The position numbers were made by a program, and so were the translations under genes. From Deferribacterales bacterium (GTDB taxonomy: Bacteria > Chrysiogenota > Deferribacteres > Deferribacterales > Geovibrionaceae), in NCBI GenBank assembly GCA_050253075.1, contig JBFWJS010000003.1, positions 21,358 to 85,357 on the forward strand: a DNA stretch of 64,000 nt. Direction: 5' to 3'. Positions 4,242-39,951 of this stretch are shown piece after piece. The notes beneath the pieces were generated by a model. The model was not told where the DNA came from. It did no database searches and saw only the letters and a list, made by a program, of their open reading frames with translations. The number at the start of each line of letters is the position of its first letter. Position 1 is the first letter of the stretch.

Positions 4242-4362
4242 CTTTCATCCTGTATCGTGGTCTCACATGGAAAATGTTGAAGGGGGTAAATGAAAGAACA
4301 GATAATCATTTAAATGCATATCGCATTCTGTTAAGATTTTTCATCTATCAGGGGAACTGTTT

Positions 4363-6458: not shown

Positions 6459-6482
6459 CTTTCACCTCACAGACACAGTATG

Positions 6483-6525: not shown

Positions 6526-6772
6526 GATATTTACACACAGTATTAATATTAATTAGTCTAAAATATACTGATCGTATAAATCCGTGTTGGTTATTTAAAA
6601 ATAAAAAAATTATGTTAGAATGACTGTGAGTTATAATATTTTAATCTCAAAGATAAAATGCTAACTTAATTTGATATTGGCATTATGTTTATTTCGAGTT
6701 GAAATTGAATATATGTTTGCAGCTATTTGATTTTGTATACTTTAATGTTTTTTGATAAGGAGAGATAGTCTC

Positions 6773-10431: not shown

Positions 10432-10436
10432 TAAAT

Positions 10437-13685: not shown

Positions 13686-13686
13686 T

Positions 13687-14187
13687 ATGGACCCGATCCT
13701 GCGTGATAATATTTGGCAGCGGAAAGGGATTTCGATACTGTGGGATGATAGCACATTAGCTGATCTGATTAATGATAATCGTGTAATCTCACTGAGAGAG
13801 TTCTTTTCTTTCTATGCACAAAACTGGCCGGAAAATTCGATGCCTTTTATAAATGACGACTTGCTTTTGGTTGCAGGGCTCGATGCAGCTCTTGATACTC
13901 TTGAAGCCTCTGATGCAGAACATTGGGTGACACAAGAGGTATACAAGCGTATTTATGAGTTTCAAAACTGGGCAGAAGGACAGTATGCCCTCGTTTTCTG
14001 GATGAGCAGTAAGAATCGATGGAAAGAACACATAGATGAAGACAGATATACCTGGCTTTGCGACGGGAAAGACCGTGGCAAAGAAATTGAACTAGGTAGT
14101 GGAATATGGAATGGTGCACAACGCAGTGTCCAGCGAATTGAATCAGATAATCGCTGGATAGGCCTTTTCTTAGACAGGATTAGTTAA
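13687..14187 (+). CDS. Small hypothetical protein in the defence operon
   Basis: GAGGAG RBS; 1-2 nt gaps to both neighbours; LLLVAGLD resembles a degenerate Walker B strand. Confidence 0.75.
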   Translation: MDPILRDNIWQRKGISILWDDSTLADLINDNRVISLREFFSFYAQNWPENSMPFINDDLLLVAGLDAALDTLEASDAEHWVTQEVYKRIYEFQNWAEGQYALVFWMSSKNRWKEHIDEDRYTWLCDGKDRGKEIELGSGIWNGAQRSVQRIESDNRWIGLFLDRIS

Positions 14188-14189
14188 TA

Positions 14190-23300: not shown

Positions 23301-23694
23301 AAGTGGAAAAAACCAGGTTAACTCTCCATTTATGTACTATCTGCTTGGCTTATCTTATGCCCAGATTGAAGACTACCCAAGCAGCAATGAAGCTTTCAAA
23401 AAGATTAAGGAGTCATTATTTTTTCGGCAAGTTAGAAATAAGGTCTGGCACATCATTTGTGACGAAAATGGTGTGCCTAAAAAATTTCGTGGTTCGTTAA
23501 GCGAAAATTACTACGATAGCTCTACCAGAAAAGGCTTTGCAAAGCTTGAAGCAATTCATACGAGTAAAGGTGGCGTCTTTTTTTATGGCCCGAATATGAA
23601 AACTGCAAAATATAGTGGCAGTTTTTCTGATATTGAAGTTGGTACAAGCTACATAGGTTTTGAGGCATTCAGAAAGTTGGAAGAGAACAAGTAG
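20323..23694 (+). CDS. Large multidomain protein: Sir2-like N-terminus, STAND-like P-loop NTPase, helical repeats, C-terminal OB-like domain (Avs-like)
   Basis: LPWSCVVTTSVD (cf. Sir2 TTNYD); ILVLGQTSSSKS (variant Walker A); VVLIWD (Walker B); long helical C-terminal half; AT-rich cargo gene. Confidence 0.62.
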   Translation: MQNDNVNQIDQLLNSRIPIMLFIGKEPKDIDPSILALPWSCVVTTSVDVSLQYCFEIKDKRRPIVITNSHDMLGSAKLNQRELNIVYLYGEEDQSNLSAINKQRKKNNALDMLKIIPDMLNSAFGALFVINYNPDYKDEIQFENLIDTVDSIKNKPVYFFGISQQLANNQLFNEMQAENCIVGDTGELQDLVELTDEQDDLLEEGELLDDDKVYYYSNGKRHSITTGELFETKSFAKLLNETEIGIINFPNHLRNDYFYHFLKESAKRPIWFGYENHFNLVRDYERKLNDLVYASLNSKEIKQKPILVLGQTSSSKSIVLSNLAYTLFKAHDHPVVFINNKDISFDINSSNFNALDSLLYKIEEHGATRVVLIWDNSSSSVNEITATEKLYTGLINRGRKVVLISSAYQQINIYRNKIDKFFKVINAEIKLSKEEKERLSELVLSNSRVPQDVFQRWIQSEHEDNLLTLLYSLLMEYTGSGIIQGVKNEIDKGMSSLLNALSKLPKQAERNKTSILAQAFADAGYKLKGHSGGAPSTIDIETIEHSLREFCKIVAISYQHNIMLPVYLVVKCSGLDIDSNFYLIQETLFSIPFLKVITREEDSSDFDYAIGFRTPLEANLYLKSIETTPEQEIACITNLILNISHSNQYSKFSEVSSIDKLIRTIGPNTIKPEVRTRYRSYYYKVIDALQELRAQSKIFDPKLICQEVTWVREVYGNQIEQEFEYELRVNKLQEASVLANKTLSNLESPNITYHELITRHNLIVETAFIEWKLYELVKQNTSSSSDSSSQITFNYDELLNSLKEVIYNDPTNSYPANALLKLFKALYLNNNINTQNKLKYLDEILTIINNIDNATDEAFIDNEEYLEHKSHVIEYLSSKKYEKYLDELIAAAPSVGLHLKARKLIVNANIDVKKPLDNNQILVAHEIITMLNKNEESVSKHEGCLLLKLNLLWLIYNDSPIFTGKEKQFTQMNLEHWKDINKICRQYEEHILKSGKNQVNSPFMYYLLGLSYAQIEDYPSSNEAFKKIKESLFFRQVRNKVWHIICDENGVPKKFRGSLSENYYDSSTRKGFAKLEAIHTSKGGVFFYGPNMKTAKYSGSFSDIEVGTSYIGFEAFRKLEENK

Positions 23695-23695
23695 G

Positions 23696-24586
23696 ATGGA
23701 TAAAGCAATAATTAGCAGAGCTAAAAACTCAATAGCTTTTAACTTAAACAAAATTGATTCATTGAATAAGTCCGTTGCTAAACTTGATGCAAGATTGTAT
23801 GCATTCGCATACTATGAGCCTATAGCTATTTCTGAATGCGGTAACTATAGGTTTAATTTTAATATCGCAATACTTAATCTTCATGCTTTATTATGGGACT
23901 GTGGCACTATGGTTAGAGATAAAATATTAAATAAATATTATAAACTGCGTCCCACATCTTTAATAAAAATAACTTCTCCATTTATTGATGACATTGATAG
24001 ATATTATAGTGTAATCCATAATATTCGAACACATTTATGTCACAATAACAGTCAAGAATATTATTATAATAAGCAGTGTTACAGCATGGTAAAAAACTAT
24101 TACTTATCAAAGTGTAACAATGCGACCCCCGATATTGCTAACTCATCTGATGACTGGAAGTTGTTGTTTAATGATATTATTGACATTGCTGAATACATTG
24201 AAACTAAAATGAGTGAAACCATAAGAAAGTTTACGTTACTACCTCCTGTAGACAAATCTGAAGTGATTAATTTTTGGCTTAATAGCATTAAAGAGTATTA
24301 TGCAAATGACAGTGAAATGATATTAGATACGCTTACTTACAAGTATCTAATATCTCCTTCTTTCATACAAACGGCACCGGTAACTAAAAATTCAGTAAAA
24401 AAATGGGTAGGCCTCAAATGGAACAGCTTAACTAATCGTCGTATACCTTATAGAGACTCTTACAATGATTATATTCAAGTGTGTAAAACTAGAATCGGCA
24501 CGGCATTGAATAATACTAACTGCCCAAGACCAGCCTTGCCTTTAGATATTTATCATGCAGTTACTTCAGAAGCGGATCATTTCTAA
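23696..24586 (+). CDS. Hypothetical protein with HEPN-like Rx4H motif
   Basis: IHNIRTHLCHN in a predicted helical context; ATG 1 nt after the upstream stop. Confidence 0.55.
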   Translation: MDKAIISRAKNSIAFNLNKIDSLNKSVAKLDARLYAFAYYEPIAISECGNYRFNFNIAILNLHALLWDCGTMVRDKILNKYYKLRPTSLIKITSPFIDDIDRYYSVIHNIRTHLCHNNSQEYYYNKQCYSMVKNYYLSKCNNATPDIANSSDDWKLLFNDIIDIAEYIETKMSETIRKFTLLPPVDKSEVINFWLNSIKEYYANDSEMILDTLTYKYLISPSFIQTAPVTKNSVKKWVGLKWNSLTNRRIPYRDSYNDYIQVCKTRIGTALNNTNCPRPALPLDIYHAVTSEADHF

Positions 24587-24685: not shown

Positions 24686-24982
24686 TCATTGTAACTCCTT
24701 AACCGTCTTATATTTATACCCGCACTTGGAGTTGATTTTCTCCACTGTGGATTCGAGGGCACGGCAGTTGGCGTAGAATTCGTTCAGGAGAGTCTGTACC
24801 TCTTCTACAGAGAAACCGTCCTGGAGCAGGTTGCGTTTAAGAGTACTGATGCCGATGTCAGCCTGAGAGAGGATAAGGACGAGCATATGGCTTTCCGGCG
24901 TTCTGGTGAAGACAACTTTTGTGTCCGGGCGTTTCGCGAGCTCTATCTTCTTTTCTACGATACTTTTCTTACCTGCGGCCAT
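24686..24982 (-). CDS. Hypothetical ICE protein (weak resemblance to DUF1845/AcaB)
   Basis: GGAG RBS; last gene of the minus-strand tra operon; VVFTRTPESHMLVLILSQAD. The resemblance is tentative. Confidence 0.55.
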   Translation of the reverse strand: MAAGKKSIVEKKIELAKRPDTKVVFTRTPESHMLVLILSQADIGISTLKRNLLQDGFSVEEVQTLLNEFYANCRALESTVEKINSKCGYKYKTVKELQ

Positions 24983-25673
24983 ATGGTCTTCTCCTGTCAT
25001 TTTTTCTGTTTTCAGAGGCGATGTAACTGCCCCAGCAGAGCACTATAAAAATCAGGGCCGTGAGCAGCATCATCCACGAACTGCTCAGCAGCACTGGGCG
25101 GATATCCCGCACCCAGTAATAAATTTCCTTCCGGAAAACTGAGCTGACTCTGGTCATTTTATTCAGCACGCTGTACAGATTCGCATCTGTTATAACCACA
25201 TAATAGACAAAGTGGTAAAAGGCGGCACTGGAGACAGCCTTTATAAAGCTCCCCGTCGTCGCTCCCCAGAATAAATTATTCAGCATCAGTTTTGTGACTC
25301 TGCCTGCGTTAAACTTTGCGGCATAAGTGAAAAACAGTGCATAAACCAGACTGAACGATATCGTCATAACAAACACATATCCCCTGTCGAAGAGCGTCGG
25401 AACCCTATGCCCGAAAACCGGAATCTTTGCCTGTATAACCCCCACAAAAAGAGGCATCAGAAGCATCATCAATAAACCGCCGTGTATGACGGTCTTCATA
25501 CCGAGCCAGAAATACTCCATCCGCATGTCGATTGTGTAGTAATCTTCCGGAATGACAGAGCCGCCGGACTCTGCGACGGAATATCTCTGAATCTCTCCGA
25601 TAACCTCAAGCAGCCCCGCAGGCTTATGCCTCTCCTGCGCAGTTTCTATTGGGATAACTTCTGTTTCAGCCAT
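24969..25673 (-). CDS. Hypothetical multi-pass membrane protein
   Basis: About four hydrophobic segments; overlaps both neighbours. Confidence 0.75.
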   Translation of the reverse strand: MAETEVIPIETAQERHKPAGLLEVIGEIQRYSVAESGGSVIPEDYYTIDMRMEYFWLGMKTVIHGGLLMMLLMPLFVGVIQAKIPVFGHRVPTLFDRGYVFVMTISFSLVYALFFTYAAKFNAGRVTKLMLNNLFWGATTGSFIKAVSSAAFYHFVYYVVITDANLYSVLNKMTRVSSVFRKEIYYWVRDIRPVLLSSSWMMLLTALIFIVLCWGSYIASENRKNDRRRPYGRR

Positions 25674-25914
25674 AAATGAGCCTCATAATAATTATTCTGA
25701 TACCCGTGCCGTATGCCATGCATGCCGCAATGATTATGCATACTGTTCCGGCGATTACGTTCCGCCTTTTAAAGGAGAACCAGAGCGCAAAAAAGATGAA
25801 CACAACCCCGATAATTTGCGCCCAGTGTCCTTTGATAATGCCGTTGTAAATCAGCCCGACAAATGAATTATACTGTTCCATACATTCTCCTGATAAATTT
25901 GAAAATTCTGCCAT
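25666..25914 (-). CDS. Small membrane protein, possibly pilin-like
   Basis: Two hydrophobic helices separated by KRR; lies in the tra operon. True start may be the internal MEQ. Confidence 0.55.
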   Translation of the reverse strand: MAEFSNLSGECMEQYNSFVGLIYNGIIKGHWAQIIGVVFIFFALWFSFKRRNVIAGTVCIIIAACMAYGTGIRIIIMRLIYG

Positions 25915-25995: not shown

Positions 25996-28164
25996 TTAAT
26001 CCTGACTGCAGATCATGTCTTTTGCCGCTTCGTACAGCGCACCGAAAGTAGTCACAACTTCACTGAAATGGTCTGTGCAGGAGCAGTTTTCTATCATAGT
26101 TTCATTAGAAGCATCGTAAGGACAGCTTCGCTCCATGGTGTTCCTGTCCACACCGCACGGACGCTCTTCAATTACTGGCGTATTCACGTCAGGCCTTGTC
26201 TGCTGATCCGGAAAAACCTCAGTATCAGTATTGCCTGTTTGGACAACGCAGCTGTATGTGCAGTTGTCAAAACTGTCAGTTTCGATGTCTATATTGCCTG
26301 CTGCCGTTTCGCCGTCGTTAAGATAATTGAAGTCGCCGGTGTCCCTGTCCAGAGTGGAGCCGATCATATCTGCCTGCGCCTTTGCATCAGAAAAGTCATA
26401 TCCGGCATCGGTCGTGCAGATATATGTCCGGCTTATTTTGTAACGCTCAAGGCCGTCATTTCTGGTTGATATAGTCCGTACAGTGTTGTCAGGGATAATC
26501 TGTGTTCCGGTGACAGAGGGGACATAAAGCAGTGAGGATGTGATATCGAACCTGTCACCGTAGTCGCAAATAATATATTTTCCGGCGGAGCCTGAATATT
26601 CATCACACACGGTGGCTGGCAATATGCCTGTGGCGTTGTAGTTCAGGTAGGTGTCATATTCGTCATTTACGGTTTCTTCGTATAGCTGGCATGATTCGTC
26701 GCCGGAATACAGAGCGCAGCTGTCTGTTCTCTGAACGCTGATTTCATCTTTGCCGCCGATTACTCCGGTCAGATAGGCATATCCTTCGCCCTCGCCGCCG
26801 ACAATGACATCAACGATAGCAGTGTTTACTCCGTTTATAAGGTAAGGCTTAACATCCACATCAACGCCGTAATTCCAGCTTTTACCAAGCTCGCACGAAC
26901 CTGAGTTTGTCTCTGTGTAATAAACTCTGTTATCTATTACATCAAGCCTGTCACCGCCTTTCGGGCCGACATATGCTACATGGCCGTTGATAGTGATTTT
27001 TATCCAGTCGTCAAACACAAGCCTTGTGAGCTTGAATTCCGATACCTCGTCCAGGTCTTCTATATAGAATTCCGTGGTTTTGGAATAATGAGCGCAGTAG
27101 CCGCTCCAGTAGTCGTTTCCTTTTTTGCCTATTACTACTTCAACGAGTTCCGCCGGTGTGGACGCTATCGCAGGAGTATTTGTTATGGTGCAGTCGTTTG
27201 ATTCTGTCTGAGTGTTGTTTTGCGCCATGACAGTGTTGTACATGCTGTCGGAGTCGGACATCTGGCTCAGAAGTTCGCTGTCATAGCTGATACTGCCTGT
27301 CTGGTATGTTGCTTTAAGGCTGTCCACGCTATCATTGCTGTCTGTGCAGGACGCTGGGTCAACAGCCATGTACTTTACAGACATGGTGGCTGTATCAAAT
27401 TTTGTATCGCTTACCGCTATGTCCAGCTCGTTCATAAGGTGGCCGGAAATGCCTCCGCCGAAATATCCCAGTGCTTCGTTAAAGGCTGCATTGAATGAGG
27501 AGCCGCAGGAAGCGTTTGAGCAGAAACATCCGCCGACATGACGCATCTGCAGGTAGCTCCGCTCAACTGCTCTTACACGGTCTTCTGCTGGCTGACAGAC
27601 ACCGCCGCAGGCGTTCTTGCACTGTCTGTATGTGTCGTAAGTGGTGCTGCCGCATTTATGCCTTATCCCGAATTCAAAATATCTACATCCGTTCCATGAA
27701 CCGGAAGGGGAGCAGCTTACATATCCGTTTGTACAAAATCCTGAGACCGGCAGTGTTGTGAAATTGGAATCCGGTGTTCCGTCAAGGTCAGCGTCATAAC
27801 TGACCCGAAGCTGAACTTCTCCGCCGGATACGAAGTTGACCGGATTGACAGTTAAAACTTCTGTCTGAGAATTGCACTGCAACTCTATGTCGAAGTTATT
27901 TTCCACGCAGGCTTCAGAACAGTTATCAGCGCATTCGTCGGCGGATGTGTAGACAGTATCTGTTGCAGGGCACTTCCATGAGTCTGAAAGTGTGGACATC
28001 TTTTCACTGGTCATCATCGGGTTAAAGAGCGTCTGCTTTGCGCTGTCTGCGTTTCCGTGCAGGTCAACCATCTCCTTACCCAGATTATTACCGTCTGTCT
28101 TTCCTTGCTCAGCAATTGACAATAGCGGAATCAAAAGTATTACCACGATAAGCCTACTTATCAT
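25996..28164 (-). CDS. Cys-rich secreted TraN-like protein (N-terminal-type domains)
   Basis: Signal peptide; FDDWIKITINGHVAYVGP motif as in large TraN proteins; many Cys pairs; follows trbC. Confidence 0.7.
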   Translation of the reverse strand: MISRLIVVILLIPLLSIAEQGKTDGNNLGKEMVDLHGNADSAKQTLFNPMMTSEKMSTLSDSWKCPATDTVYTSADECADNCSEACVENNFDIELQCNSQTEVLTVNPVNFVSGGEVQLRVSYDADLDGTPDSNFTTLPVSGFCTNGYVSCSPSGSWNGCRYFEFGIRHKCGSTTYDTYRQCKNACGGVCQPAEDRVRAVERSYLQMRHVGGCFCSNASCGSSFNAAFNEALGYFGGGISGHLMNELDIAVSDTKFDTATMSVKYMAVDPASCTDSNDSVDSLKATYQTGSISYDSELLSQMSDSDSMYNTVMAQNNTQTESNDCTITNTPAIASTPAELVEVVIGKKGNDYWSGYCAHYSKTTEFYIEDLDEVSEFKLTRLVFDDWIKITINGHVAYVGPKGGDRLDVIDNRVYYTETNSGSCELGKSWNYGVDVDVKPYLINGVNTAIVDVIVGGEGEGYAYLTGVIGGKDEISVQRTDSCALYSGDESCQLYEETVNDEYDTYLNYNATGILPATVCDEYSGSAGKYIICDYGDRFDITSSLLYVPSVTGTQIIPDNTVRTISTRNDGLERYKISRTYICTTDAGYDFSDAKAQADMIGSTLDRDTGDFNYLNDGETAAGNIDIETDSFDNCTYSCVVQTGNTDTEVFPDQQTRPDVNTPVIEERPCGVDRNTMERSCPYDASNETMIENCSCTDHFSEVVTTFGALYEAAKDMICSQD

Positions 28165-28888
28165 AAAAGCCCTGTTTAAGCTTTTTCAGCATGTCGCCAG
28201 CTATGACAATGCCGCTGTCTCTGAGCTTTTCCAGCGCATACTGAATTGAAACATCGCCTGACAGTTTGTAGTAGCTGTCCTCTGCGATAGGCTCTCCCAG
28301 AGTTACCTTTTTCATGACTTCGGAGTATGGCAGCGAAGAATGAACAAATGCAGGGACGGATTTGATATTAAAGGCTCTGAAGAGATACGGATTGATATCA
28401 ACCTTTGCCATGTCGCATTTGGTGCCTTCGGTGAAATCAGCAAGACCTTTCCCGCAGGATATACGAGCCACAAAGTCCACTGTGGGCATTATCTTATCTA
28501 TGCCGCCGATAACACCGTTGATAACCAGAAGTGCGCCGTCTAAATTTCTTACCGTATCAGTATAGTTCATCAGAGTCTTTTCAGGTATTGAAGAACTGAT
28601 GAAAATATAGAGGCTTTTATCCGGTATTTCAGAGTGGCATGTTTCTTCCTCTTCAGGCTTAAAGCCTTTGTTTTCTGCCATCTGCTTTTTATAATCAGAG
28701 ACCTTGTTCATAAGAGATTCATAGCCGGAATCTATAAATGCCTTTGCCTTGTCAAGCATCTCCTGATTGTCTGGCAGACTGATCTCCGGTTTTGTACTCT
28801 TTTTAATGCTGTCTATAGTCTCTTTCAGCGTTTCTGCGCTGGCAAAGCTAAAACAGAGGGTAAACAGTGCCAATAATATTACTTTCAT
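28154..28888 (-). CDS. trbC: F-type pilus assembly protein TrbC
   Basis: YIFISSSIP, INPYLFRAFNIKSVPAFV, GDVSIQYALE. Confidence 0.88.
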   Translation of the reverse strand: MKVILLALFTLCFSFASAETLKETIDSIKKSTKPEISLPDNQEMLDKAKAFIDSGYESLMNKVSDYKKQMAENKGFKPEEEETCHSEIPDKSLYIFISSSIPEKTLMNYTDTVRNLDGALLVINGVIGGIDKIMPTVDFVARISCGKGLADFTEGTKCDMAKVDINPYLFRAFNIKSVPAFVHSSLPYSEVMKKVTLGEPIAEDSYYKLSGDVSIQYALEKLRDSGIVIAGDMLKKLKQGFYDK

Positions 28889-29285
28889 CTAAGAATCCCC
28901 ATATGCGGCTGTCGTATGAACGTTCATGAGAGCCGACTGCAAATATTTTTCCTTCAGGTATTATGCCGGAGAAGTTGAATTTCATTTTGTCCGGGTCTTT
29001 TCTGATTGCGATGTATTCACCGTCACAGATAAAGGCAAGGTCGGTAGTAAGAAGCTCCATGCCGGAGAGGCAGGCGGCTTTTTTCACCAGTTTGGAATTT
29101 TCCGGCAGTATGCCGAGCGGGTCATTTTCAGCACTAAAGATGATATAGTCGCCTTTATGCACGTCATGACCTCTTGTGAAGGCATACCATGTGAACCATA
29201 CAGACTCTGAAGTGTTCCTGCCCAGATGCATACTGATTGTGATGATCACAGCTATGATCAAAAGCAGCGGTAATATTCTTTTCAT
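28848..29285 (-). CDS. S26-family signal peptidase (pilin-processing, TrhF-like)
   Basis: NTSESV (catalytic Ser), LVKK (Lys), SYDSRIWG. Confidence 0.85.
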   Translation of the reverse strand: MKRILPLLLIIAVIITISMHLGRNTSESVWFTWYAFTRGHDVHKGDYIIFSAENDPLGILPENSKLVKKAACLSGMELLTTDLAFICDGEYIAIRKDPDKMKFNFSGIIPEGKIFAVGSHERSYDSRIWGFLDESNIIGTVYPLF

Positions 29286-32200
29286 TGCACGGCCTCCGGC
29301 AACTGGATGTTTTCAAAGGTATTGATTATCGTGCCTTCGACATTTGGCATCATCTCAGGATTAACGAACGTATCCAGCCATTCGCTGAAATTTATCTTGC
29401 TGAAATCCAGCTTTTGAAATTCATCAGGCGTAAAACCTCTACAGTTCGGGCTTTTTGCCGTGCCGAAGTTAAAGCCTAGCTGATCACGGCCCTGTTCCGC
29501 TATAATCCTGCCGAGCGGGCTTCCGAAGCAACAGTATGTCTTTTTCTTCTGAACGCAGACACAGGCAGGGCATATGCCCCATTTTTCGGCACAATATTCG
29601 CCGACATAGTGACACTGTCCGTCCAGTTCGCCCCAGTCTCGCAGAGCGGAGAGAGCCTGTTCTCCTGAGGAGCATTTACCCAGTCCGAACCATGTTTCAT
29701 CCTTTTTACAGCAGTCTGAAAAACCTGACTGAGTTCCAGGCGGACGGCATCGTCTGTCGCCGCCGTTAAAGATATATATCTGATCAAGGCACTGGCCGCT
29801 GTCGTCTTTGTTGCCGTCATTAAGCTTGTCGTTTGCGCCTTCCTGAGTATCTTCGCTGGTGTCCAGATATGAAGGATCGTTAGGGTCAAGGCACTGATGT
29901 GGGGAACACTTGTAGTCCGGCGAACCTGTAATGGTCGATAGATTGACACATTCATTTCCGCTGTATGGACAGCTTCCGGAGTGACATTTGTCTATAGCAG
30001 GATTGTAGATGCTGTCAGTGCATATGGGCACTGCTTCACATTGACGGCTTATAGGGGAGTATGCGTAACTTCCGCCGCAGTCATGTTCAGGTTCATAGAC
30101 ACACCAGTTGAGCTGTGTTGAATATATAGAGCCTGAGGCACAGGATAGACTTTTCTCGCACCTGTCTTTGTCGGCATTAAACGTATAGCCTATGGGGCAA
30201 AGAGTGCTTGCTGAGAGCGTACACTCATTCAGGGTGGAGTTGTATATGCCCGAAGAGCACACCGGAGCAGAGTAGCAGATATTTCCATCCTGAGTGTAGC
30301 CGGATGGGCATGATGTGCTTACGGTCAGAGTACATTTGTCAGTAGCAGTATTGAGTATGCCTGATCTGCTGCAAGATGGGGCAGCGACACACTTTCCCAG
30401 TGCCGCATCATACGTTGAACCTGCTGGACAGCTGTTCTCAAGTGAGATGACACATTTATCAGTTGTACTGTTAAACGTACCTCCGCCAGGGCACGTTGGA
30501 TTTGCAATGCAGAGTGATCCGCTTTGGGTTGTCCCTGTGGGGCAGGTGGTGTCACACGATTCGTGATAAGTGCATATTGAACCGTATAATGTATACTCTG
30601 GAGGGCAGCTGTATGATGTGTTTAAATCATTGTGCCATAGTATAATTATAATGTTATTTGATTCCCAATATAAGACACCGTCTGTTGAAAGACATACTGC
30701 TGTTGTATCTGTTAAATTACATACAGGTGAAAACATTGATGGGTAAGTATATGTAAAAGATGTACAGCTTCCTCTGTATACTCTAAATACAGAAGTTTGG
30801 GAGCATCCGGAATCATAATAAAAGTCACCATAACTGCAGTCGCTTTCTATATATACATTTCTTAACCCCGCAGGGTAGTTAGATACATCATATGAGCAAG
30901 ATAATGTGCTGTTTAATGTTGCTGGAGTAGAGCCGCTGCAGCTTTCAGAGCACTGTGATGATGAAGTGTAGGTGGTATTGTCAACGGGACATGTATAACT
31001 GCCCGAACCTTCGCACTTATTTGTCACAGAATTGAATGATGTTCCTGAAGGGCATGTCGGTGATGCAATGCATTGCCCGTTTGAAAGTGTGTATCCTGTG
31101 GGGCAACTTGTTGTTGCTGTCTTTAAGCATTTGTCGGAAGTTGTGCTGTATGTAAAACCTGTAGGGCAATCCGGAGCATCCTCACATTTTCCGGTTGAGC
31201 TGTTATAAGAATATCCTGTAGGGCATGAATATGTCACAGAGAATTCACATCTATCGTTTGCCTGGATGTATGTTCCTGCGGAGCAGTCAGGTGTTTTTAC
31301 ACAGCTGTTGTTGAGAGAGTCATAAGTGTACCCTGTAGGACAGGAACCATCGGTAATGACAACTTCACACTGATCTGTCTGAGGATTTAACACTCCGCCG
31401 TTGGGGCACTCAGGCGGATCGTAACATCTGTCGGATGTATAGTCATATGTGAAACCGTTCTCGCAGGTAACAATTGGCTCTTTCTGACACATGTCAGTCA
31501 GACCGTTTAATATACCGCCGTCAGGACAGAGAGGGTTTTCATATATTGAGTTGCATGAGACCATATCGCTGGGGCATACATACCCTCCGCTGCTCGCCGA
31601 CAGACATTGAGAGACATTGTCTCCGGCGATACAGAGCATACAGCTGCTGGTGCTGTCAGAGCAGTATGTATTGATGATTTCGTTTGTATCGGTCTGTTCC
31701 TGCGGTGGTAATCCCGCAACACAGTCCAGCATGCCGCTGAATGCTCCTATGCCATAATGTCTCGGCTGATAATCACCTCCGTATGAGGCATGCTGCCCAT
31801 CATCGTACCATTTGCCGTCTGTGTCTGCATATACCCAGTGTTCGCCGTATATGGTTACAGTTCCAATATCTGCGCCGTCAATTCTATTATCCGGCTGACC
31901 GGCGGCAAAATTGTCATATGTAACGGCTAAGCCGTCAGTCCATGCGTAGTTTGATTTGTTGACTGTGCCGTAGGCTGTGCTCATAGCTGTGTCATAAAGC
32001 CCAAGCCATAGTGACTTTCCGGATAGGTTTGCAAGTATGCTGACAATTTCTGCTTTATGTTCACTGCCCGCTATGAAATGCTGATTTGCGCTCCATGTCT
32101 GCTGATTCAAAGAAACGCCGTATGTCGTTCCACTCTGCCTGTCATAGATAAAGCTGGAATATCCTGAAGGACATTCATTTGCGCCTGTGGAATATGACAG

Positions 32201-32335
32201 TTCCGTACAGGCATCCTCACAATTTGCATTACACGCTGTCAGTGATTCAAAATGAATGTCATTTGTACCGCAGTAGTATGCGGCATCTGCTGCACCTGAA
32301 ATGAGCAGGAATATAAGGCACGCCAGATATTTCAT
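29282..32335 (-). CDS. traN: Mating-pair stabilisation protein TraN with C-type lectin-like domain and Cys-rich repeats
   Basis: C-terminal IFNG..RC...DCC, CHYVGEYC, YCCFGSPLGRIIAEQGRDQL, PNCRGFTPDEFQKLDFSKI. Confidence 0.9.
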   Translation of the reverse strand: MKYLACLIFLLISGAADAAYYCGTNDIHFESLTACNANCEDACTELSYSTGANECPSGYSSFIYDRQSGTTYGVSLNQQTWSANQHFIAGSEHKAEIVSILANLSGKSLWLGLYDTAMSTAYGTVNKSNYAWTDGLAVTYDNFAAGQPDNRIDGADIGTVTIYGEHWVYADTDGKWYDDGQHASYGGDYQPRHYGIGAFSGMLDCVAGLPPQEQTDTNEIINTYCSDSTSSCMLCIAGDNVSQCLSASSGGYVCPSDMVSCNSIYENPLCPDGGILNGLTDMCQKEPIVTCENGFTYDYTSDRCYDPPECPNGGVLNPQTDQCEVVITDGSCPTGYTYDSLNNSCVKTPDCSAGTYIQANDRCEFSVTYSCPTGYSYNSSTGKCEDAPDCPTGFTYSTTSDKCLKTATTSCPTGYTLSNGQCIASPTCPSGTSFNSVTNKCEGSGSYTCPVDNTTYTSSSQCSESCSGSTPATLNSTLSCSYDVSNYPAGLRNVYIESDCSYGDFYYDSGCSQTSVFRVYRGSCTSFTYTYPSMFSPVCNLTDTTAVCLSTDGVLYWESNNIIIILWHNDLNTSYSCPPEYTLYGSICTYHESCDTTCPTGTTQSGSLCIANPTCPGGGTFNSTTDKCVISLENSCPAGSTYDAALGKCVAAPSCSRSGILNTATDKCTLTVSTSCPSGYTQDGNICYSAPVCSSGIYNSTLNECTLSASTLCPIGYTFNADKDRCEKSLSCASGSIYSTQLNWCVYEPEHDCGGSYAYSPISRQCEAVPICTDSIYNPAIDKCHSGSCPYSGNECVNLSTITGSPDYKCSPHQCLDPNDPSYLDTSEDTQEGANDKLNDGNKDDSGQCLDQIYIFNGGDRRCRPPGTQSGFSDCCKKDETWFGLGKCSSGEQALSALRDWGELDGQCHYVGEYCAEKWGICPACVCVQKKKTYCCFGSPLGRIIAEQGRDQLGFNFGTAKSPNCRGFTPDEFQKLDFSKINFSEWLDTFVNPEMMPNVEGTIINTFENIQLPEAVQ

Positions 32336-33987
32336 GACTCATCACCATATTTTGGTTTTACAGATTCGATATCCTGCAATATCCCGCTTTTGCGGCTCTC
32401 AAGCTCTGACACATCTCCAAAAGCCTCCGACACCATAGGCGTGTAGTAGGCCTTGTTTATGCTTTTGCCGTCTTTGTATGTAACTGTGAAAGGTGCGGTG
32501 AAATACCCATGCCTGATTATGCCGTCCGCTATCAGTCGTTTTTCTCTGAGCATTTCAGTAATGGTGTATATGTAGTTTCGTCTCTGCTGCTGATCGGAGT
32601 CGGCGAGCAGTATTTCGTCATGGCCGTAGCGTCTCGCCAGCATTTTGATCACTTTCCAGAAGACATCTGTCTGGAAATAAACATGGTCGTCTTTCATGCT
32701 GAAAGCTTCGAAGCGGTTGCCGTTCAGGACGTTGATGCGGTTATTAAGCTCCGCAAGGTATTCAGAGATATTCAGCCAATTCAGATCAGAAGAGTCGGCA
32801 GGTTTTTTCTCCGTTTCTGTTTCCGCCTGAGTCTGGAAGATATCGTTTTTTGTAACAAGATTATCGGCAAGCTCTTTTCGTCTGGCATTTCTGTCCGCCT
32901 CACGAAGTTTGTCAGCGAGATCACCGCCACCGGTTCGATGGTGAGATAGTATTGCCGTCTCTACATCGCTCCTGTAGCTCAGGTCAGCGAAGCCTGCAAG
33001 GCTGTTAAGCACAACAACACTTATTCTCGGATGATCACCCATGCTGTACATCGCCTTGTCAAAGCTCTCAATCTTGCCCAGATCGTGCCCCAGCGCAGCC
33101 ATGATAAGCTGTGCGGCGTATGCCCCTGGCTTGTCCACCAGCTTCAATATTTCTTCAGCCACATGCAGGCTGTGCAGATACAGCGGAACTTTTGCCAGAG
33201 CAGTAAATGTATTCTGCTCTTCATAGTGGTTTATCTCGCCGCTGCGCTTTACGACTGAGGGCGTATCACCATTATCATCAAGCAAGGTCATTATCTGCCT
33301 GATCACCTCTTCAGCCGACTCAGGCAAGGAGGCAACATGCATTTTGTAAAACTGGGTCAATTCTGCTTTTGAAAAAGTAATCTCATTTTTTTCAGGTTCA
33401 GACTGTTCAAGCATTTCTGACTTTTTTCCTGTCCAGAGCGGTGAAAGCTCAGAAAGATGAATGTTTATCTGTTCTTTTTTTTCCTGTTTAACCAGGCGGC
33501 TGCTTCCTGAAAAAAGTGATACAAAGAGCACCACAGCGACAAAGAGCCAGAGGGGATAAGGGAAAAGATATGCCAGAACAAACAGCATCAGGATTATCAT
33601 AAACAGAGCAATATACTCAAAGGGGGAGCCGTTTGTGAAAAGCCTGAAACCGTGTCCGGCCCTGAAAGGATTATAGAAAGGTACACCTGAGCGTGTGAGG
33701 GAATCACAGAAGACGTGGAGCAAAGCTCCTATCAGGAAATAATAAAGCACATAGCCGCCTATAGCAGTTAATAGAATATAAATAAGCGGAGAAGTATAAA
33801 GCACCCACCAGTGGCTTATTTTGCGATGCACTTTATGGAAGGCTCCTTTACTGCCGAAACTGAATATAGTATCGACAACATCAGGGAAGACAGACCCTGC
33901 GCTAATAGCTGCCGCAGCGACCGGCTCAAACGAACCAACGGCGGCGATATAACCCATTCCGGCTAGCAAATGGCTCCTGATTTTCAT
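32332..33987 (-). CDS. Fusion: YdjM-like membrane metal-dependent hydrolase domain plus HD domain (MOBH-like putative relaxase)
   Basis: N-terminus H...PDVVD...HRKISH...HVFCDSLT..GVP; C-terminus HSLHVA, LGHDLGK, SHH, EAD; adjacent to the coupling protein. Confidence 0.65.
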   Translation of the reverse strand: MKIRSHLLAGMGYIAAVGSFEPVAAAAISAGSVFPDVVDTIFSFGSKGAFHKVHRKISHWWVLYTSPLIYILLTAIGGYVLYYFLIGALLHVFCDSLTRSGVPFYNPFRAGHGFRLFTNGSPFEYIALFMIILMLFVLAYLFPYPLWLFVAVVLFVSLFSGSSRLVKQEKKEQINIHLSELSPLWTGKKSEMLEQSEPEKNEITFSKAELTQFYKMHVASLPESAEEVIRQIMTLLDDNGDTPSVVKRSGEINHYEEQNTFTALAKVPLYLHSLHVAEEILKLVDKPGAYAAQLIMAALGHDLGKIESFDKAMYSMGDHPRISVVVLNSLAGFADLSYRSDVETAILSHHRTGGGDLADKLREADRNARRKELADNLVTKNDIFQTQAETETEKKPADSSDLNWLNISEYLAELNNRINVLNGNRFEAFSMKDDHVYFQTDVFWKVIKMLARRYGHDEILLADSDQQQRRNYIYTITEMLREKRLIADGIIRHGYFTAPFTVTYKDGKSINKAYYTPMVSEAFGDVSELESRKSGILQDIESVKPKYGDES

Positions 33988-35288
33988 ACAGTAGCTCTCG
34001 GATATTCAATATTGATGTAGGCATCGCTGGTATCCATTGTTTTGCCGAAGAATGCACCGTCATAGTTCATCATGAAGAACTCACGTTTCTGCAGGCCAAG
34101 CACATCTTCAGGCTTGAGGATGTCCTCCTCGTTCTCACGGACATTTATAATTCCAGCGGAGCTCATCATGGAGAGCATCTGCTTATGTGTTCCGAAATGC
34201 CTGCATACATAGCTTGCAGTTTCTTCATCCGGCACTTTCATAAATAGTTTGTTATTAATGTTATCCAGAGTGCTGTTGCCGTAATCTCTGCCTATCATGG
34301 CATATATCTGGTTTACCGACTGGCTGAGGCCATGCAGGTGGACGTTTGCGCCGCCTGCTTTTGCGAAAAAATCATCTATCCCGTAGTAAAGCACGTTCTG
34401 AGCCTCATCCATGAATATCTCTAACGGCGGGTCAACTCTTTGCCCGCTGCTGAAGATACGTCCGACATAAGACTGGAACATAGAGAGCAAAACCTTGCCA
34501 ACGGTGAACGCCGCCTTGCGTGTCATCAACGAGCCGACCTGCGCAACGAGTATCACAGATTTGCCGTTTTCCAGCTTTTCTATTATAGGGTTTCCACGGG
34601 CTTTGCCGAGGATTTCTCCGATGTTGCCGGATGTAAGCTCCATCAGGGCAACTCGAAGTGAGCTTGAGACTTTGTTGTAGTAATCCTGTCCGGAATCCAC
34701 GATCTTTTGTAGGTCGTTTGCCAGCTGGATAACATCGTGACTGTCACTGCTGAGGCTTGCGACATTTCTTTGCAGGGTTGTCAGGTCAGTGTGGGAGACA
34801 ACGTCTTTAACATCGTTAAAGTTAAACCGTTTGCCGTATGCCTTCTCTGTGAGCAGCATAAACGCCTGAACGATCATAAGGCTGGTTTCATATGCCACAT
34901 TATAAAAAAATGGCTCAGAGCCCACCTCAATACCTGAGATGAGGTGTCCGACAAGCTCCTCCGGCATGTAATAGTATTCCAGCGGATTGAGCTTTATGGA
35001 GTATTGGGGGAATATCGGAGAGATCAGCATCAGATCATCTTCACGACCGGCCTCTTTTGCCGCCTGATATATCTTGCTGAAAAGAGGGATATCCCCCTTC
35101 GGGTCTATCACAACAACGCTGTTGCCTTTTTGTATGTCCTGCTCCAGCATATTTTCCAGCAGGCGTGTTTTGCCGACTCTGGTAGTGCCGAAGCACCAGA
35201 AATGCCCCGACCGGTCAGCATCATTCATGTACAGTTCCTGCTGCTTCCCGCCACGGATATCTATACCAGTTCCAAGTATGGTTTTCAT
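33984..35288 (-). CDS. traD: Type IV coupling protein (TraD-like)
   Basis: HFWCFGTTRVGKT (Walker A), VIDPKGD, IFMDEA (Walker B), QSVNQI. Confidence 0.85.
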   Translation of the reverse strand: MKTILGTGIDIRGGKQQELYMNDADRSGHFWCFGTTRVGKTRLLENMLEQDIQKGNSVVVIDPKGDIPLFSKIYQAAKEAGREDDLMLISPIFPQYSIKLNPLEYYYMPEELVGHLISGIEVGSEPFFYNVAYETSLMIVQAFMLLTEKAYGKRFNFNDVKDVVSHTDLTTLQRNVASLSSDSHDVIQLANDLQKIVDSGQDYYNKVSSSLRVALMELTSGNIGEILGKARGNPIIEKLENGKSVILVAQVGSLMTRKAAFTVGKVLLSMFQSYVGRIFSSGQRVDPPLEIFMDEAQNVLYYGIDDFFAKAGGANVHLHGLSQSVNQIYAMIGRDYGNSTLDNINNKLFMKVPDEETASYVCRHFGTHKQMLSMMSSAGIINVRENEEDILKPEDVLGLQKREFFMMNYDGAFFGKTMDTSDAYINIEYPRATV

Positions 35289-35362
35289 GCCGTCACCAAT
35301 CTTGAGAAAAGATGAAATAAAGGATAAGATGACATGTGAATAAAATTATGCAGAGGTGAAAG

Positions 35363-35653
35363 ATGACTCCAGAACAAGCTGAAAAACTTGAAATATTTCT
35401 TAGATGGGCAATTCATTCCTTGCCTTACATTTTGGAACAAAACAAAATTGAACAATTTGAAGAGTCTATGAAGACTGAGGGGGCAATATCTCAAGAACTT
35501 AAAGAGCTTATTGATGACAAATGTGGACTTGGGTTGTCCTATTGCATTGCTCAATTTATAAAAGATATAGAAACCGCTATTCAAAATGGTGAGGATATAA
35601 ACCAATTCACCTACACGGCTCAACTGCTTCATACTGCTTTGAAATGTTGTTAA
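35363..35653 (+). CDS. Hypothetical protein (inverted AT-rich cassette)
   Basis: GAGGTG RBS; protein-like E/K/I composition. Confidence 0.62.
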   Translation: MTPEQAEKLEIFLRWAIHSLPYILEQNKIEQFEESMKTEGAISQELKELIDDKCGLGLSYCIAQFIKDIETAIQNGEDINQFTYTAQLLHTALKCC

Positions 35654-35668
35654 GCATGGAGATGATAT

Positions 35669-36148
35669 ATGGCTTGCCCTTTTATTGAGAATCATCCCCA
35701 TATATATTTTTTTATGAAATCTATAAATGGCCCATTGGCTGGAGTTGTTATTGGAGCTGGTATTGGCTTTTTTAGTCAATGGTTCATGTCTAAGCAGAAT
35801 CATAAAAGAGAACTTGAGAAGCTTGGATATGAAAAAAAATATGGTGCTTATATGGAGCTTTTGAATGTTATAAATTCTGCAAGTATATTTATAGATAGCG
35901 AAACCCTTACTCATGACGAAATCAATGACACTGTAGTAAAATGTGTTTCGGCGAGTAAAGATAAAGCTGTTATAAGCATAGCTGTTCGCAGAATTCAGAA
36001 ACTCATTGGTAATAACCCATTGATTATTTCTGATAAAATTAAACATAAAACAAAGAGGATTATGAAAAAACTTGAAGATGATACTTATGACCACAAAGAT
36101 TACGAATCCTTTAATAAACTTCTGCAATCTGAATTGGGTATTAAATAA
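35669..36148 (+). CDS. Hypothetical protein with N-terminal TM helix (inverted AT-rich cassette)
   Basis: GGAGA RBS; LAGVVIGAGIGFF TM segment followed by a charged helical domain. Confidence 0.68.
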   Translation: MACPFIENHPHIYFFMKSINGPLAGVVIGAGIGFFSQWFMSKQNHKRELEKLGYEKKYGAYMELLNVINSASIFIDSETLTHDEINDTVVKCVSASKDKAVISIAVRRIQKLIGNNPLIISDKIKHKTKRIMKKLEDDTYDHKDYESFNKLLQSELGIK

Positions 36149-36153
36149 TTTCA

Positions 36154-36834
36154 CTAATGAACCTCTATTATTATGTGCTCAAAGAGTTTTTTAGAGATGT
36201 TCTTTAGGACACTTTTCGGAATGATTTTTATAGATTTAATTAATGATTTTGCGCCAGCGATACGTTGAGTGCATTTGACTGAATACCCCTGTTCCTCGAA
36301 GAGCTTTTCTACCAGTTTTCGGCTGGTGAGGCTCAGTGTGAAAAGAACATCATTTCCAGACCTTTCAGTGCCGATAATGAGGCTCCTGACCTCCTGCCCT
36401 TGCTGAAATGTGCCTCTCAGTTTCGGCGTGATGTGCATCTTATGAAGCACACCAGTTACCCTGAAATTCGCTCCCAGATAGATATTCAGCAAAACGTCTT
36501 CTGCGGATACATCCCGAACCTCCCCCTTTACAAGAGTATTCATAAAAGATTTCAGGTAAGTTTCTTTTAGCCGATATGAGTATCTGCCGTACTCCGTGTT
36601 CAGCATAGAAGCGAGAGCCGTTGCATCATACTTTTTAAGAGTGATCTCACGCTCGATACCGTCTGCTCTGTACTGCCTCATTGTTAGTCCTTCGGCGGAG
36701 ATGGAGCAGACTGTGGGCGAACCGTATTTCTCGCTGTAGTAGCCCTCCAGAACAGAGGCTATTATCTGCCTTACTTCCTCTTCGGTGATCCCATATATGC
36801 CTGAGATGTCTGAAATATAGCTCTCTAACCACAT
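36154..36834 (-). CDS. Divergent NusA paralogue (NTD-S1-KH1 only)
   Basis: Colinear similarity to NusA: ITEEEVRQIIASVL..YYSEKY (NTD); TLVKGEVRDV..DVLL...FQQGQEVRSLI...LSLTSRKLVEKLF (S1); RIAGAKSLI...KNISKKLFEHIII (KH1). Confidence 0.72.
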   Translation of the reverse strand: MWLESYISDISGIYGITEEEVRQIIASVLEGYYSEKYGSPTVCSISAEGLTMRQYRADGIEREITLKKYDATALASMLNTEYGRYSYRLKETYLKSFMNTLVKGEVRDVSAEDVLLNIYLGANFRVTGVLHKMHITPKLRGTFQQGQEVRSLIIGTERSGNDVLFTLSLTSRKLVEKLFEEQGYSVKCTQRIAGAKSLIKSIKIIPKSVLKNISKKLFEHIIIEVH

Positions 36835-37019
36835 CTTTCAGACCCTCGGTGTATCCTGAGACTCGACACAACAATGGCGGTGATCTCCTCATACGCTGGT
36901 AGAACATTACCTTTATTGATCTGCTGAGAGATCACCACGGCGCAAACAGAGTCAAAAGCCTCTTTCAGCTCGTCATATTTTTCCTGAAGGTTCAGAAAAG
37001 CATCCTGAAAATCAGACAT
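36825..37019 (-). CDS. Small hypothetical protein
   Basis: In operon, overlaps the NusA-like start; coiled-coil-like N-terminus; weak RBS. Confidence 0.45.
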   Translation of the reverse strand: MSDFQDAFLNLQEKYDELKEAFDSVCAVVISQQINKGNVLPAYEEITAIVVSSLRIHRGSERCG

Positions 37020-37085: not shown

Positions 37086-37427
37086 TTATTCTGGCGAATC
37101 GCCGTCTGTGTCACCTTTCGGTGTCAGGAACTGGACGTTATGTCCGACAACAGTTACTTTTGAGTGAAAGCCTTTGTCGTCTTCCCACGAGCTGTAATCA
37201 AGCTCACCTGTGACAAGCACAAGCTTCCCTTTGGCAAGGTATTCATTGCAGCTTTCCGCTGTTTTACCAAAGACTGTAACGTCATAAAAGTCTGCTTTCT
37301 CTTTGGCAGGTTTGTTGACTGCTACTGTGAATTTGCTGGTGATAGTACCGTTCTTTGTCTCTCCGGCTTCAGGTGCTTTTGTAAGGTTGCCGAGAACGGC
37401 AGCGTATGAATAGTATGGACTGGACAT
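37086..37427 (-). CDS. ssb: Single-stranded DNA-binding protein (short, no DDDIPF tail)
   Basis: LGNLTKAPE, FTVAVN, DFYDVTVFGKTAE..YLAKGKLVLVTGEL; AAGGAGG RBS before the ATG at 37427. Confidence 0.9.
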   Translation of the reverse strand: MSSPYYSYAAVLGNLTKAPEAGETKNGTITSKFTVAVNKPAKEKADFYDVTVFGKTAESCNEYLAKGKLVLVTGELDYSSWEDDKGFHSKVTVVGHNVQFLTPKGDTDGDSPE

Positions 37428-37496
37428 ATCCACCTCCTTGCCCTGTTAATAGGGTAGGGGGTAAATCCTAAAATATTTTTCATATTCGTTTTTGAA

Positions 37497-37529: not shown

Positions 37530-37560
37530 CTTCACATAATAAAGTGTGGAGGTAGTGTTT

Positions 37561-39609
37561 ATGCACAACAAAATCATTCTTGCTTTTACAATGTTGATAA
37601 TGCTCTTGGTCTTGGTCGCATGTGGCGGCGGAGGCGGTGGCAGCAGCAGTACAGCTCCTGTTGTTGATGATGACCAGGCAGATACTGCTCAGGTAACATA
37701 TGACGGTACTTCTGTCGCAGAAGCCTCAACTGGAACTGACGGCAGAACAGTCATCACTTCCGGTACATCCGGTAACTCTTACGATATTGCCATAGAGGAT
37801 AATTCAGGAAATCCTGTTGGTGATATCGATGTTTCTTTTTATGAGGATGGCGATAACGCTGTCATCTATGTTTCCGATCCTATGGGAGTGTATTCAGACT
37901 CTCTCCTGATAGGGACACCAGCCGAACTGGCAACTGTATCAGGCAGATTTGCCCGTGCGGCCAGCAATGTTCAGCTTGGGGTAACTTTAACTCAGCGTAC
38001 AGCCTCAACAGTGGGCTTTACTGGTAATGCTTATGATCTGTCTAACGTTTACATGGGCACTCTGTCTGAAGCTTCCGGTGTCGAATCAGGATGCTATACA
38101 CCATCAGAGATAGCTGCAACTATCGAAGGTTTATTTACATCTTCAATGATCAGCAGTAGCTCTATTCTGATTTTTTCAGACAGCACCACGAGTTCTGTAG
38201 CCGGAGCTGTCAAAATCAGTTCCAGCACATTGAGCAGCAGCATATCTGATGCTTTAACTGCAAAAATGGAGCATGAGTATTCTGTCGGAAGCGGAGCTCT
38301 TGATTCAGAGATATTTCGACTGACATGTTATGTCCCCGACAATCATAATCTGTTTGGAGTAGTATGTGAGATCAAACGAGCTTCTTCTGTTTGCGAGGGG
38401 ACTAACAGCGCACCAGTAATAACCGGTACTCCATCGACAGCAGTCACTGCAGGCTCGGCGTATAGTTTTATCCCTGCGGCGTCTGATGAAGATGGAGATA
38501 CGTTGACCTTCAGTATAGTGAATAAGCCTTCATGGGCATCATTTAGCACTTCCACAGGGGAACTTTCAGGAACACCCGCAGTGAGCGATGCCGGAGTATA
38601 TTCAGGGATAGTGATCAGTGCTACAGATGGTACAGATAATACTTCGCTTTCACAGTTCAGTATTACAGTTGCAGCCGGAAACTCTGCTCCTGTTATCATC
38701 GGCACTCCTGCTACGGAAGTTACGGCGGGTAATGCATACAGTTTCACTCCTACAGCCTCAGATGTGGATGATGACACACTGACATTCAGCATAGAAAATA
38801 AGCCATCATGGGCTTCTTTCAACGCTGCTACTGGTGCATTAACAGGAACTCCAGCCACTTCGGACGAAGGGGCATATACAGGCATCGTAATATCTGTATC
38901 TGATGGTTCAGAGACAGCATCTCTTAGCAGTTTTACTATAACTGTCAGCGTTCTGAATTCTGTTCCGACAATTTCTGGAACTCCAGAAACTACTTTGGCA
39001 GAAGGTGCAGCTTACAGTTTCACACCTACTGCAAATGATGCAGACGGCGATACCCTTACTTTCAGTATAGAGAACAAACCTACATGGGCATCTTTTGATA
39101 CAGCTACAGGCGCACTTACTGGCACGCCGAGCTCTTCTGATGCGGGCACATACAGCTCTATTCTAATAAGTGTAGACGATGGCAATGGCGGAGAAGCATC
39201 TCTGGCGGCATTTACAATAACAGTCACAGAACCAGCCATAACACTTTATAGAGCTGGAACAACCTTTCTTGATCCAGACTTCATAGCTGTTAGCTGGCCA
39301 TATAATGTTAATGCTACTGTATCTGCGACTATATTGGGAGTCAGCTATTATACAATAGGCACTTTTAAACTGTCAGCAGCCGGAGACAGCTTTACAATCA
39401 GTTCTCTGTCTGCGGTAGATTTGAATTCTCATGTGGTTCCGTACTTTCAGGGGCTGACAGATGGTCAGGTAATAGAGCCTGGGACAGACGTGACATTCAA
39501 GCTGCTTTCACCGTTAACAGGCGGCAGCCAGTCAAACCTTAGATTCAATTTCACAATTCAGGAGACCGGAGAGACATTCACTTACAATGTCACTCTTCAG
39601 ACCAACTAA
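37561..39609 (+). CDS. Surface lipoprotein with three putative Ig (He_PIG/cadherin-like) repeats
   Basis: Lipobox LVAC-GGGGG; three 92-aa repeats NSAPVITGTP...YSF.P.A.D.DGDTLTFSI.NKP.WASF (276-nt period from 38404). Confidence 0.85.
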   Translation: MHNKIILAFTMLIMLLVLVACGGGGGGSSSTAPVVDDDQADTAQVTYDGTSVAEASTGTDGRTVITSGTSGNSYDIAIEDNSGNPVGDIDVSFYEDGDNAVIYVSDPMGVYSDSLLIGTPAELATVSGRFARAASNVQLGVTLTQRTASTVGFTGNAYDLSNVYMGTLSEASGVESGCYTPSEIAATIEGLFTSSMISSSSILIFSDSTTSSVAGAVKISSSTLSSSISDALTAKMEHEYSVGSGALDSEIFRLTCYVPDNHNLFGVVCEIKRASSVCEGTNSAPVITGTPSTAVTAGSAYSFIPAASDEDGDTLTFSIVNKPSWASFSTSTGELSGTPAVSDAGVYSGIVISATDGTDNTSLSQFSITVAAGNSAPVIIGTPATEVTAGNAYSFTPTASDVDDDTLTFSIENKPSWASFNAATGALTGTPATSDEGAYTGIVISVSDGSETASLSSFTITVSVLNSVPTISGTPETTLAEGAAYSFTPTANDADGDTLTFSIENKPTWASFDTATGALTGTPSSSDAGTYSSILISVDDGNGGEASLAAFTITVTEPAITLYRAGTTFLDPDFIAVSWPYNVNATVSATILGVSYYTIGTFKLSAAGDSFTISSLSAVDLNSHVVPYFQGLTDGQVIEPGTDVTFKLLSPLTGGSQSNLRFNFTIQETGETFTYNVTLQTN

Positions 39610-39877: not shown

Positions 39878-39951
39878 CGCGCCCGTAGGGATTCGAACCC
39901 CAAACCTTTTGATCCGTAGTCAAATGCTCTATCCAGTTGAGCTACGGGCGC
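39878..39951 (-). tRNA. tRNA-Arg(ACG), probable ICE attachment site
   Basis: GCGCCCGTAGCTCAACTGGATAGAGC...CT-ACG-GA...GGTTCGAATCC...CGGGCGCG; CCA not encoded. Confidence 0.96.

Follow-up and report, generated by a model that had tools for sequence, protein, structure and literature searches.

The gene designated nusA' here, which lies in an ICE of a Deferribacterales bacterium, encodes a real and hitherto undescribed variant of NusA that is carried by conjugative elements and is accompanied by a candidate cis site. The analysis centred on a window of 64,000 nt (the whole stretch of DNA that was analysed), and relatives of NusA' were found in F-type ICEs and plasmids of five phyla. Together with a motif common to operon heads of the ICE, nusA' points to a form of conjugation-gene activation that has not been described before; the mechanism proposed below is inferred. 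Specialised paralogues are well known for NusG; no description of a NusA paralogue of mobile elements was found in the literature searched (mostly outside the subscription journals).

As the preliminary description had stated, nusA' is the third of a series of co-oriented genes, behind ssb and a 64-aa ORF (Table 1). The uninterrupted minus-strand operon of about 12.7 kb (37427 to 24686) in which that description placed it is, however, broken by an 864-bp plus-strand insert between nusA' and traD. A minus-strand ORF of 289 aa that runs across this insert, and whose only Pfam match is weak (E=0.2), is taken to be a shadow of the plus-strand genes; the 96-aa insert ORF gave no match in PADLOC. 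At the same junction D. acetiphilus has a different opposite-strand cassette, of 623 bp, and in locus L082 6.5 kb is found there; the junction appears to be an insertion hotspot. The D. acetiphilus cassette (L038:9206-9829) consists of two small opposite-strand genes that, from their sequences, look like a HigBA-type toxin–antitoxin pair.

Table 1. Location of nusA' and associated features (positions in the window, except where contig C3 is named)
Feature	Position	Strand	Remarks
ssb, first gene of operon	37086..37433	-	ATG at 37427; Pfam SSB, E=9e-24
64-aa ORF	36825..37019	-	Overlaps nusA' start; conserved in D. acetiphilus
nusA' (NusA paralogue)	36154..36834	-	226-aa ORF; homology, model, codon bias
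NusA' NTD	residues 1-95		Lacks head
NusA' S1	residues 96-171
NusA' KH1	residues 172-226		Lacks GxxG helix-loop
Low-GC insert	35289..36153	+	864 bp, 33% GC; two ORFs opposite to operon
Insert ORF, 96 aa	35363-35653	+
Insert ORF, 159 aa	35669-36148	+
traD	33984..35288	-	Short TraD-type coupling protein, 434 aa
Protein with YdjM-like membrane domain and HD domain	32332..33987	-
traN, S26 peptidase (trhF-like), trbC, second traN-like gene	25996..32335	-
82-aa and 234-aa hydrophobic ORFs; 104-aa conserved helical protein (o104)	24686..25914	-	Travel with module
tRNA-Arg(ACG)	39878..39951	-
Motif TTTACCCCC-N6-ATT	37448..37465	-	38 nt before ssb ATG
Motif, second copy	4273..4290	-	49 nt before traH, head of traH-traG
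Motif copy	C3:11022 (left of window)		Before pilin-like ORF heading traE-K-B-C-W-U-F operon
Motif copy	C3:5068 (left of window)		Before parM/stbA

The alignment of the short TraD with SXT TraD does not begin until profile position 163, its N-terminal region being missing, and the HD protein encoded next to it is probably a relaxase, to judge from its position and HD domain. Plasmids carrying such a pair (short TraD plus membrane-domain HD protein) are mostly typed 'non-mobilizable'; this typing, the missing N-terminal region of TraD and the membrane domain of its HD neighbour suggest an unrecognised relaxase class.

The tRNA-Arg(ACG) gene is the probable attachment site. A 45-bp stretch of it is repeated identically on contig C5, next to an integrase-like ORF, so that the element is very likely an ICE that was split by assembly. 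Two tRNA-Arg repeats are present on C5 (G000 C5:9071-9115 and 24355-24398), each close to an integrase-like ORF, and possibly one site there holds tandem islands. The window has traH-traG at its left end. Beyond that end are a parM-like gene and an operon, traE-K-B-C-W-U-F, that is headed by a pilin-like ORF; these were named from a reading of the sequences and from matches. Between the operon head and the tRNA gene, and thus inside the ICE end, an ORF for a 687-aa lipoprotein-like product with Ig repeats (window 37546-39609) is 95% identical in D. acetiphilus. We also draw attention to two further regions of the window. At 5538-16925 a WYL-domain regulator gene is divergent from a five-gene cassette (AAA+ ATPase, 327-aa ORF, DUF1156-type methylase, 166-aa ORF and SNF2 helicase) for which Hma and BREX components gave partial matches; it is likely to be defence cargo of the ICE. 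At 20323-24586 on the plus strand (32-35% GC) are two genes, one for a protein of 1123 aa that weakly matches STAND NTPases and the other a 308-aa ORF; the pair is convergent with the end of the traD operon and had no match in a PADLOC scan.

The first question is whether NusA' is a NusA at all. The preliminary description had aligned the 226-aa ORF colinearly with the NTD, S1 and first KH domains of NusA, and this has held up: a profile built from 25 relatives finds M. tuberculosis NusA with E=2.8e-14 (a colinear match that extends from profile position 6 to 212) and E. coli NusA with E=1e-3, and the three motif registers quoted at that time agree with alignments to the M. tuberculosis and host proteins. 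Used singly, NusA' matches TIGR01953 over residues 91-182 (E=1e-7; 31 bits, far below the curated cut-off of 253 bits), and a search of PDB sequences gave two matches in all, both to NusA and both non-significant (E=0.24 and 0.36). In the AlphaFold2 model (pLDDT 93.5) the fold proposed earlier was indeed found: NusA was the top match in both structure searches (Foldseek E=1.6e-14, TMq 0.76; in the second search Z 16.9, with 214 of the 226 residues aligned at rmsd 4.2), with 12-25% identity in the structural alignments. NusA' thus belongs to the NusA superfamily, with the NTD-S1-KH order and with significant similarity in both sequence and structure. That it might be an unrelated S1-domain protein was considered and rejected, since the match to NusA takes in the entire chain.

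NusA' is nevertheless outside the housekeeping NusA group: it scores below the TIGR01953 cut-off, lacks two GxxG KH domains and is not in a rimP context. Aligned with host NusA, it has no NTD 'head' insertion, it lacks the KH1 helix and GxxG loop (about 12 residues), and it ends after KH1, so that KH2 and everything beyond are missing, the losses of GxxG and KH2 being as previously described. The KH1 helix–GxxG deletion and the absence of KH2 are found in all 24 of the family rows displayed (one of them without an NTD region). A canonical rimP-nusA pair is present on a separate contig (C6), in keeping with the earlier placing of nusA' outside the usual rimP-nusA-infB context. The idea of a recent copy of host nusA was rejected by a tree (made by a quick method and with long branches flagged).

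It is highly improbable that nusA' is a decaying, functionless passenger copy of nusA, although a broken copy does occur in one relative (G031). The frame is intact, as it is in members from five phyla with invariant residues, and, in comparison with two D. acetiphilus proteins that are its closest named relatives (76% identity), changes at the three codon positions number 20/19/79 and 25/16/65 over 180 codons. Such a concentration at third positions is typical under purifying selection, and argues against decay.

The copies of nusA' are one element-borne family, members of which were seen on both chromosomes and plasmids in Deferribacterota, Desulfobacterota, Nitrospirota, Nitrospinota and Campylobacterota; among viral contigs, none of 77 pattern matches was confirmed. 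In a quick tree, 31 element proteins formed one group apart from 20 housekeeping NusAs (SH-aLRT 100), which bears out the paralogue status proposed at the outset; the element members nearest to NusA are four, three of them visibly with an NTD head, but the branches are long and these details unsure. The 64 loci collected represent 34 clusters at 70% identity, and after eight were left out as fragments or contig ends, 56 could be counted for the linkage to transfer genes that the preliminary description had expected. In 45 of these, traD starts within 120 nt of the nusA' stop codon, often overlapping it; traD is farther away in six and was unseen in five. The usual gene order is slt (or ssb), nusA', traD, HD, and even where nusA' is parted from traD (L080, L092 and two Campylobacterota plasmids) it is near an operon head.

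In R388, TrwA precedes TrwB-TrwC, an arrangement to which nusA'-traD-HD may be likened. It is conceivable, if on balance unlikely, that NusA' is a partner in DNA processing (a relaxosome accessory, or an adaptor for the short coupling protein) whose OB-fold S1 domain would bind single-stranded DNA. The tight traD linkage would suit such a role, as would the distribution in a survey of 68 Deferribacterota genomes, where nusA' adjoins traD in all 12 genomes with a short TraD (one copy being the broken one) and is in none of the three with a long TraD. So would the fact that the altered KH is the best-kept domain of the family (conservation 0.58, against 0.30-0.43 for the NTD, which is lowest), a figure that is biased, as the searches used C-terminal KH motifs. 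On the other hand, nusA' is detached from traD in the remaining 11 loci, and several elements with a short traD have no detectable nusA': it was present in eight of 12 TraD carriers in a 401-genome Desulfobacterota sample, and in six of eight plasmids examined among nine with short traD, from which it follows that it is not obligate in these elements. The short-traD elements without it include pTHEAM01 and pACIB. No fusions of NusA' were found among proteins of 446-2000 aa (this is weak evidence), and the RNAP-facing NTD is always retained.

Some further loci deserve mention. In D. acetiphilus a second ssb-orf64-nusA' head, with the motif but without traD, lies next to a tRNA-Arg repeat (L039:9541-11832) and is a remnant or satellite element. 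Second, more diverged copies of nusA' of about 300 aa, also without traD, were seen in two genomes of family f7 (L052:160-1083 and L053:4641-5528). Genes related to c-di-GMP (HD-GYP-like, PilZ, GGDEF and EAL) recur beside nusA' or traD in a number of lineages (L092, L082/L083/L087/L089 and L203-L205), a hint of second-messenger control of transfer.

What might the retained domains do? The flap-tip helix of RNAP (FTH) enters a cavity formed by helices 1, 2 and 4 of NusA, and the E. coli NusA-NTD by itself enhances pausing (PMC5842316). Throughout the family, the three helices of this flap-tip pocket have preserved their hydrophobic pattern, with bulkier residues in helices 2 and 4, so that the RNAP-facing domain has never been lost. 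R104 and K111 of NusA are needed for pause enhancement (PMC4357713); their equivalents are basic in 28 and 25, respectively, of 41 family rows, which speaks against a general 'pause-dead mimic', and an additional K or R at position 72 (36 of 41 rows) makes helix 4 more basic than that of NusA. Given an NTD that suffices for pausing and basic residues that are mostly kept, a pause or termination enhancer could equally be built from the anatomy of NusA'. NusA' might then bind RNAP, promote pausing and termination, and serve at the transfer leaders as a brake of the fertility-inhibition kind. We consider this improbable: the copy in the window retains K68 (the R104 equivalent) but has lost two of the three basic residues (T72, and A75 at the K111 equivalent), the NTD head, which in E. 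coli contacts the alpha-CTD, is missing, nusA' is located within the operon that it would have to repress, and no leader terminator is evident. The window copy also has L169 where 39 of 41 rows keep an S1 arginine. When residues 1-100 were modelled in complex with the flap tip of host beta, the score was 0.07 (mark, 0.32), which is uninformative either way.

The candidate cis site is a C-rich motif, TTTACCCCC-N6-ATT. It occurs in exact form five times in the 3.04-Mb genome, and four of these copies are in the 70-kb ICE (0.12 expected, for a pattern that was tuned after these sites had been seen), all on the sense strand and 38-51 nt before the first gene of an operon. The same four sites are present in the D. 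acetiphilus ICE. An EM search of the DNA before slt in other elements also recovered the motif de novo (log-likelihood 126, against 62-72 in six shuffles); a motif search over 800 nt found nothing but slt coding sequence. With a matrix made from 13 other loci, which had 161 hits in the genome, three of the ICE heads (those of ssb, traH and parM) ranked within the top 20, and the head of the pilin operon was missed. Variants precede nusA' operons in distant elements, and five elements (G035, G068, G381, G453 and pSD) have second copies of their own; in Geobacter pSD a motif variant is within a 33-nt identical repeat (L035:14391 on the plus strand and 23444 on the minus strand). Of 29 cluster representatives, 14 have a loose form of the motif in the 750 nt before nusA', compared with three for the antisense strand and 2.2 in shuffles, a count that is partly circular since the pattern was derived from the same loci. 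Most Mucispirillum-like (family f7) loci lack the motif in the vicinity of nusA', and two Campylobacterota plasmids lack it at their operon heads.

The ATT resembles a -10 box, and no conserved promoter was seen upstream of the motif, so that the motif could itself be a promoter element. It would then be a promoter or activator site read at initiation, whether by NusA' at the flap tip (where NusA and sigma region 4 exclude each other; PMC4357713) or by a different protein of the ICE, for instance o104, and we rate the chance of this as small. The spacing from the C-run to the -10-like nATT is fixed, conservation begins at the motif, and three leaders go straight to a start codon with no Shine–Dalgarno (SD) sequence, all of which would be in order for such a site; o104 (24686-25000 in the window) is also widespread, being in 17 loci, with nusA' as its divergent neighbour in L037 and L079. 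Against this, only about half of the sites have a T at the end of the putative -10 box, hairpins pair across the ATT, and the model of o104 is a helical hairpin with no clear match (best fold match Z 6.7, to generic helices; none in Pfam). For o104 as an AcaB/DUF1845 homologue there was neither a family nor a clear fold match.

Alternatively, NusA' could be a translational activator or RNA chaperone that opens a hairpin hiding the ribosome-binding site at the C-rich leader and leaves termination unchanged. One Desulfuromonadales-like clade has the relevant hairpin, over the SD and start codon after the motif (z between -1.2 and -5.1, in most cases lower than -2), the whole leader of the ICE pilin operon has a fold z of -4.1, and 10 of 24 sites are below z -1.5, compared with 13-18% of control leaders. 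Yet most of these 10 are related to one another; in the ICE itself, the leaders of ssb, traH and parM show no unusual stability (that of ssb can fold its C-run onto the SD, at a non-significant z of -0.7); RNAalifold found no consensus pairs in 14 leaders, so that the leader hairpin rests on single-sequence folds; and the GxxG clamp for RNA has been deleted from NusA'. A purely translational role is accordingly rather improbable.

Our best explanation, which we hold tentatively and at somewhat under even chances, is that NusA' serves the element as an elongation factor of its own, which turns on the transfer operons of the ICE: loaded at the motif, it would carry RNAP through them. Its helical NTD would occupy the site of host NusA on the RNAP beta flap tip; it would be recruited at the C-rich leader motif, read by S1 and the altered KH surface; and the modified complex would pause less and escape Rho-type polarity, also across the opposite-strand cargo after nusA'. 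In some lineages, a ribosome-binding hairpin beside the motif might also be held open. The mode would be comparable to RfaH with ops, or LoaP with its leader hairpin, but built from NusA. The NusA fold, the single element-borne family, the position at operon heads and the motif common to four heads in the ICE all lead towards this elongation-factor reading, to which may be added the different opposite-strand inserts at two ICE junctions and the lack of a NusG paralogue: housekeeping nusG alone was found in the genome (by Pfam) and the fetched loci (by phmmer), searches that a very diverged copy could escape. Precedent is given by conAn and RfaH, which act on conjugation operons (PMC8955417, PMC7819879), and by LoaP, which antiterminates by antagonising NusA at a leader hairpin (PMC12691694).

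Against the elongation-factor reading must be set the pausing caused by the NusA-NTD, the presence of the motif in just 14 of 29 representatives, the promoter-like ATT, the elements with short traD and no detectable nusA', and the chance level of terminators. On the minus strand between 24.0 and 40.5 kb, a simple scan saw three terminator-like sites, all weak, and the total of 15 is not in excess of that in shuffles (13.0); with no strong intrinsic terminator evident within the operon, any read-through would more probably be directed against Rho-type polarity. Antitermination by NusA' is plausible on this analysis. The stronger proposition that the ICE protein replaces host NusA on RNAP at a C-rich leader element of every transfer operon, and would so be the first operon-specific NusA paralogue and a NusA counterpart of RfaH/ops, is doubtful. 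If it is true, a pause and termination factor would have become the master switch of a conjugation regulon in five anaerobe-rich phyla. A mobile variant of NusA that has a cis site of its own would offer a new handle on transcription elongation, and it would explain how a poorly annotated class of conjugative elements, with plasmids mostly typed 'non-mobilizable', is switched on. The motif and the cultured carriers (D. acetiphilus, Geobacter with pSD and Pelobacter with pPRO1) make the idea directly testable.

How does NusA' compare with known systems? With housekeeping NusA (TIGR01953) it shares the NTD-S1-KH1 order and fold, the hydrophobic core of the NTD and a motif at the S1-KH junction, but it is only 226 aa long, has no GxxG, KH2 or C-terminal repeats, in most members has no NTD head, and is mobile and away from rimP. 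The F-like regions of SXT/R391 and IncC resemble the ICE in having TraD, TraN, TrbC, TraH, an S26 peptidase and HD-domain neighbours; the ICE differs in its N-terminally shortened TraD and in the order traD then HD, and no FlhDC-like activator was noticed among its ORFs. A parallel may be drawn with NusG paralogues of the specialised kind (RfaH/ops on the F tra operon, ActX, LoaP and UpxY), likewise diverged copies of a general elongation factor beside long acquired operons, with short cis signals at the operon heads (PMC7819879, PMC8955417, PMC12691694) for which the motif is a candidate counterpart. NusA', which has no match to NusG, belongs to another protein family with another site on RNAP, and its motif is C-rich, unlike ops as quoted in PMC8955417. 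The conAn system of pLS20-type plasmids likewise has an element-encoded factor at the start of a conjugation operon, and it has a cis-acting RNA part (PMC8955417); its operons are of more than 30 kb with more than 20 intrinsic terminators, whereas the nusA' operon is less than 13 kb and has no excess of terminator-like sites.
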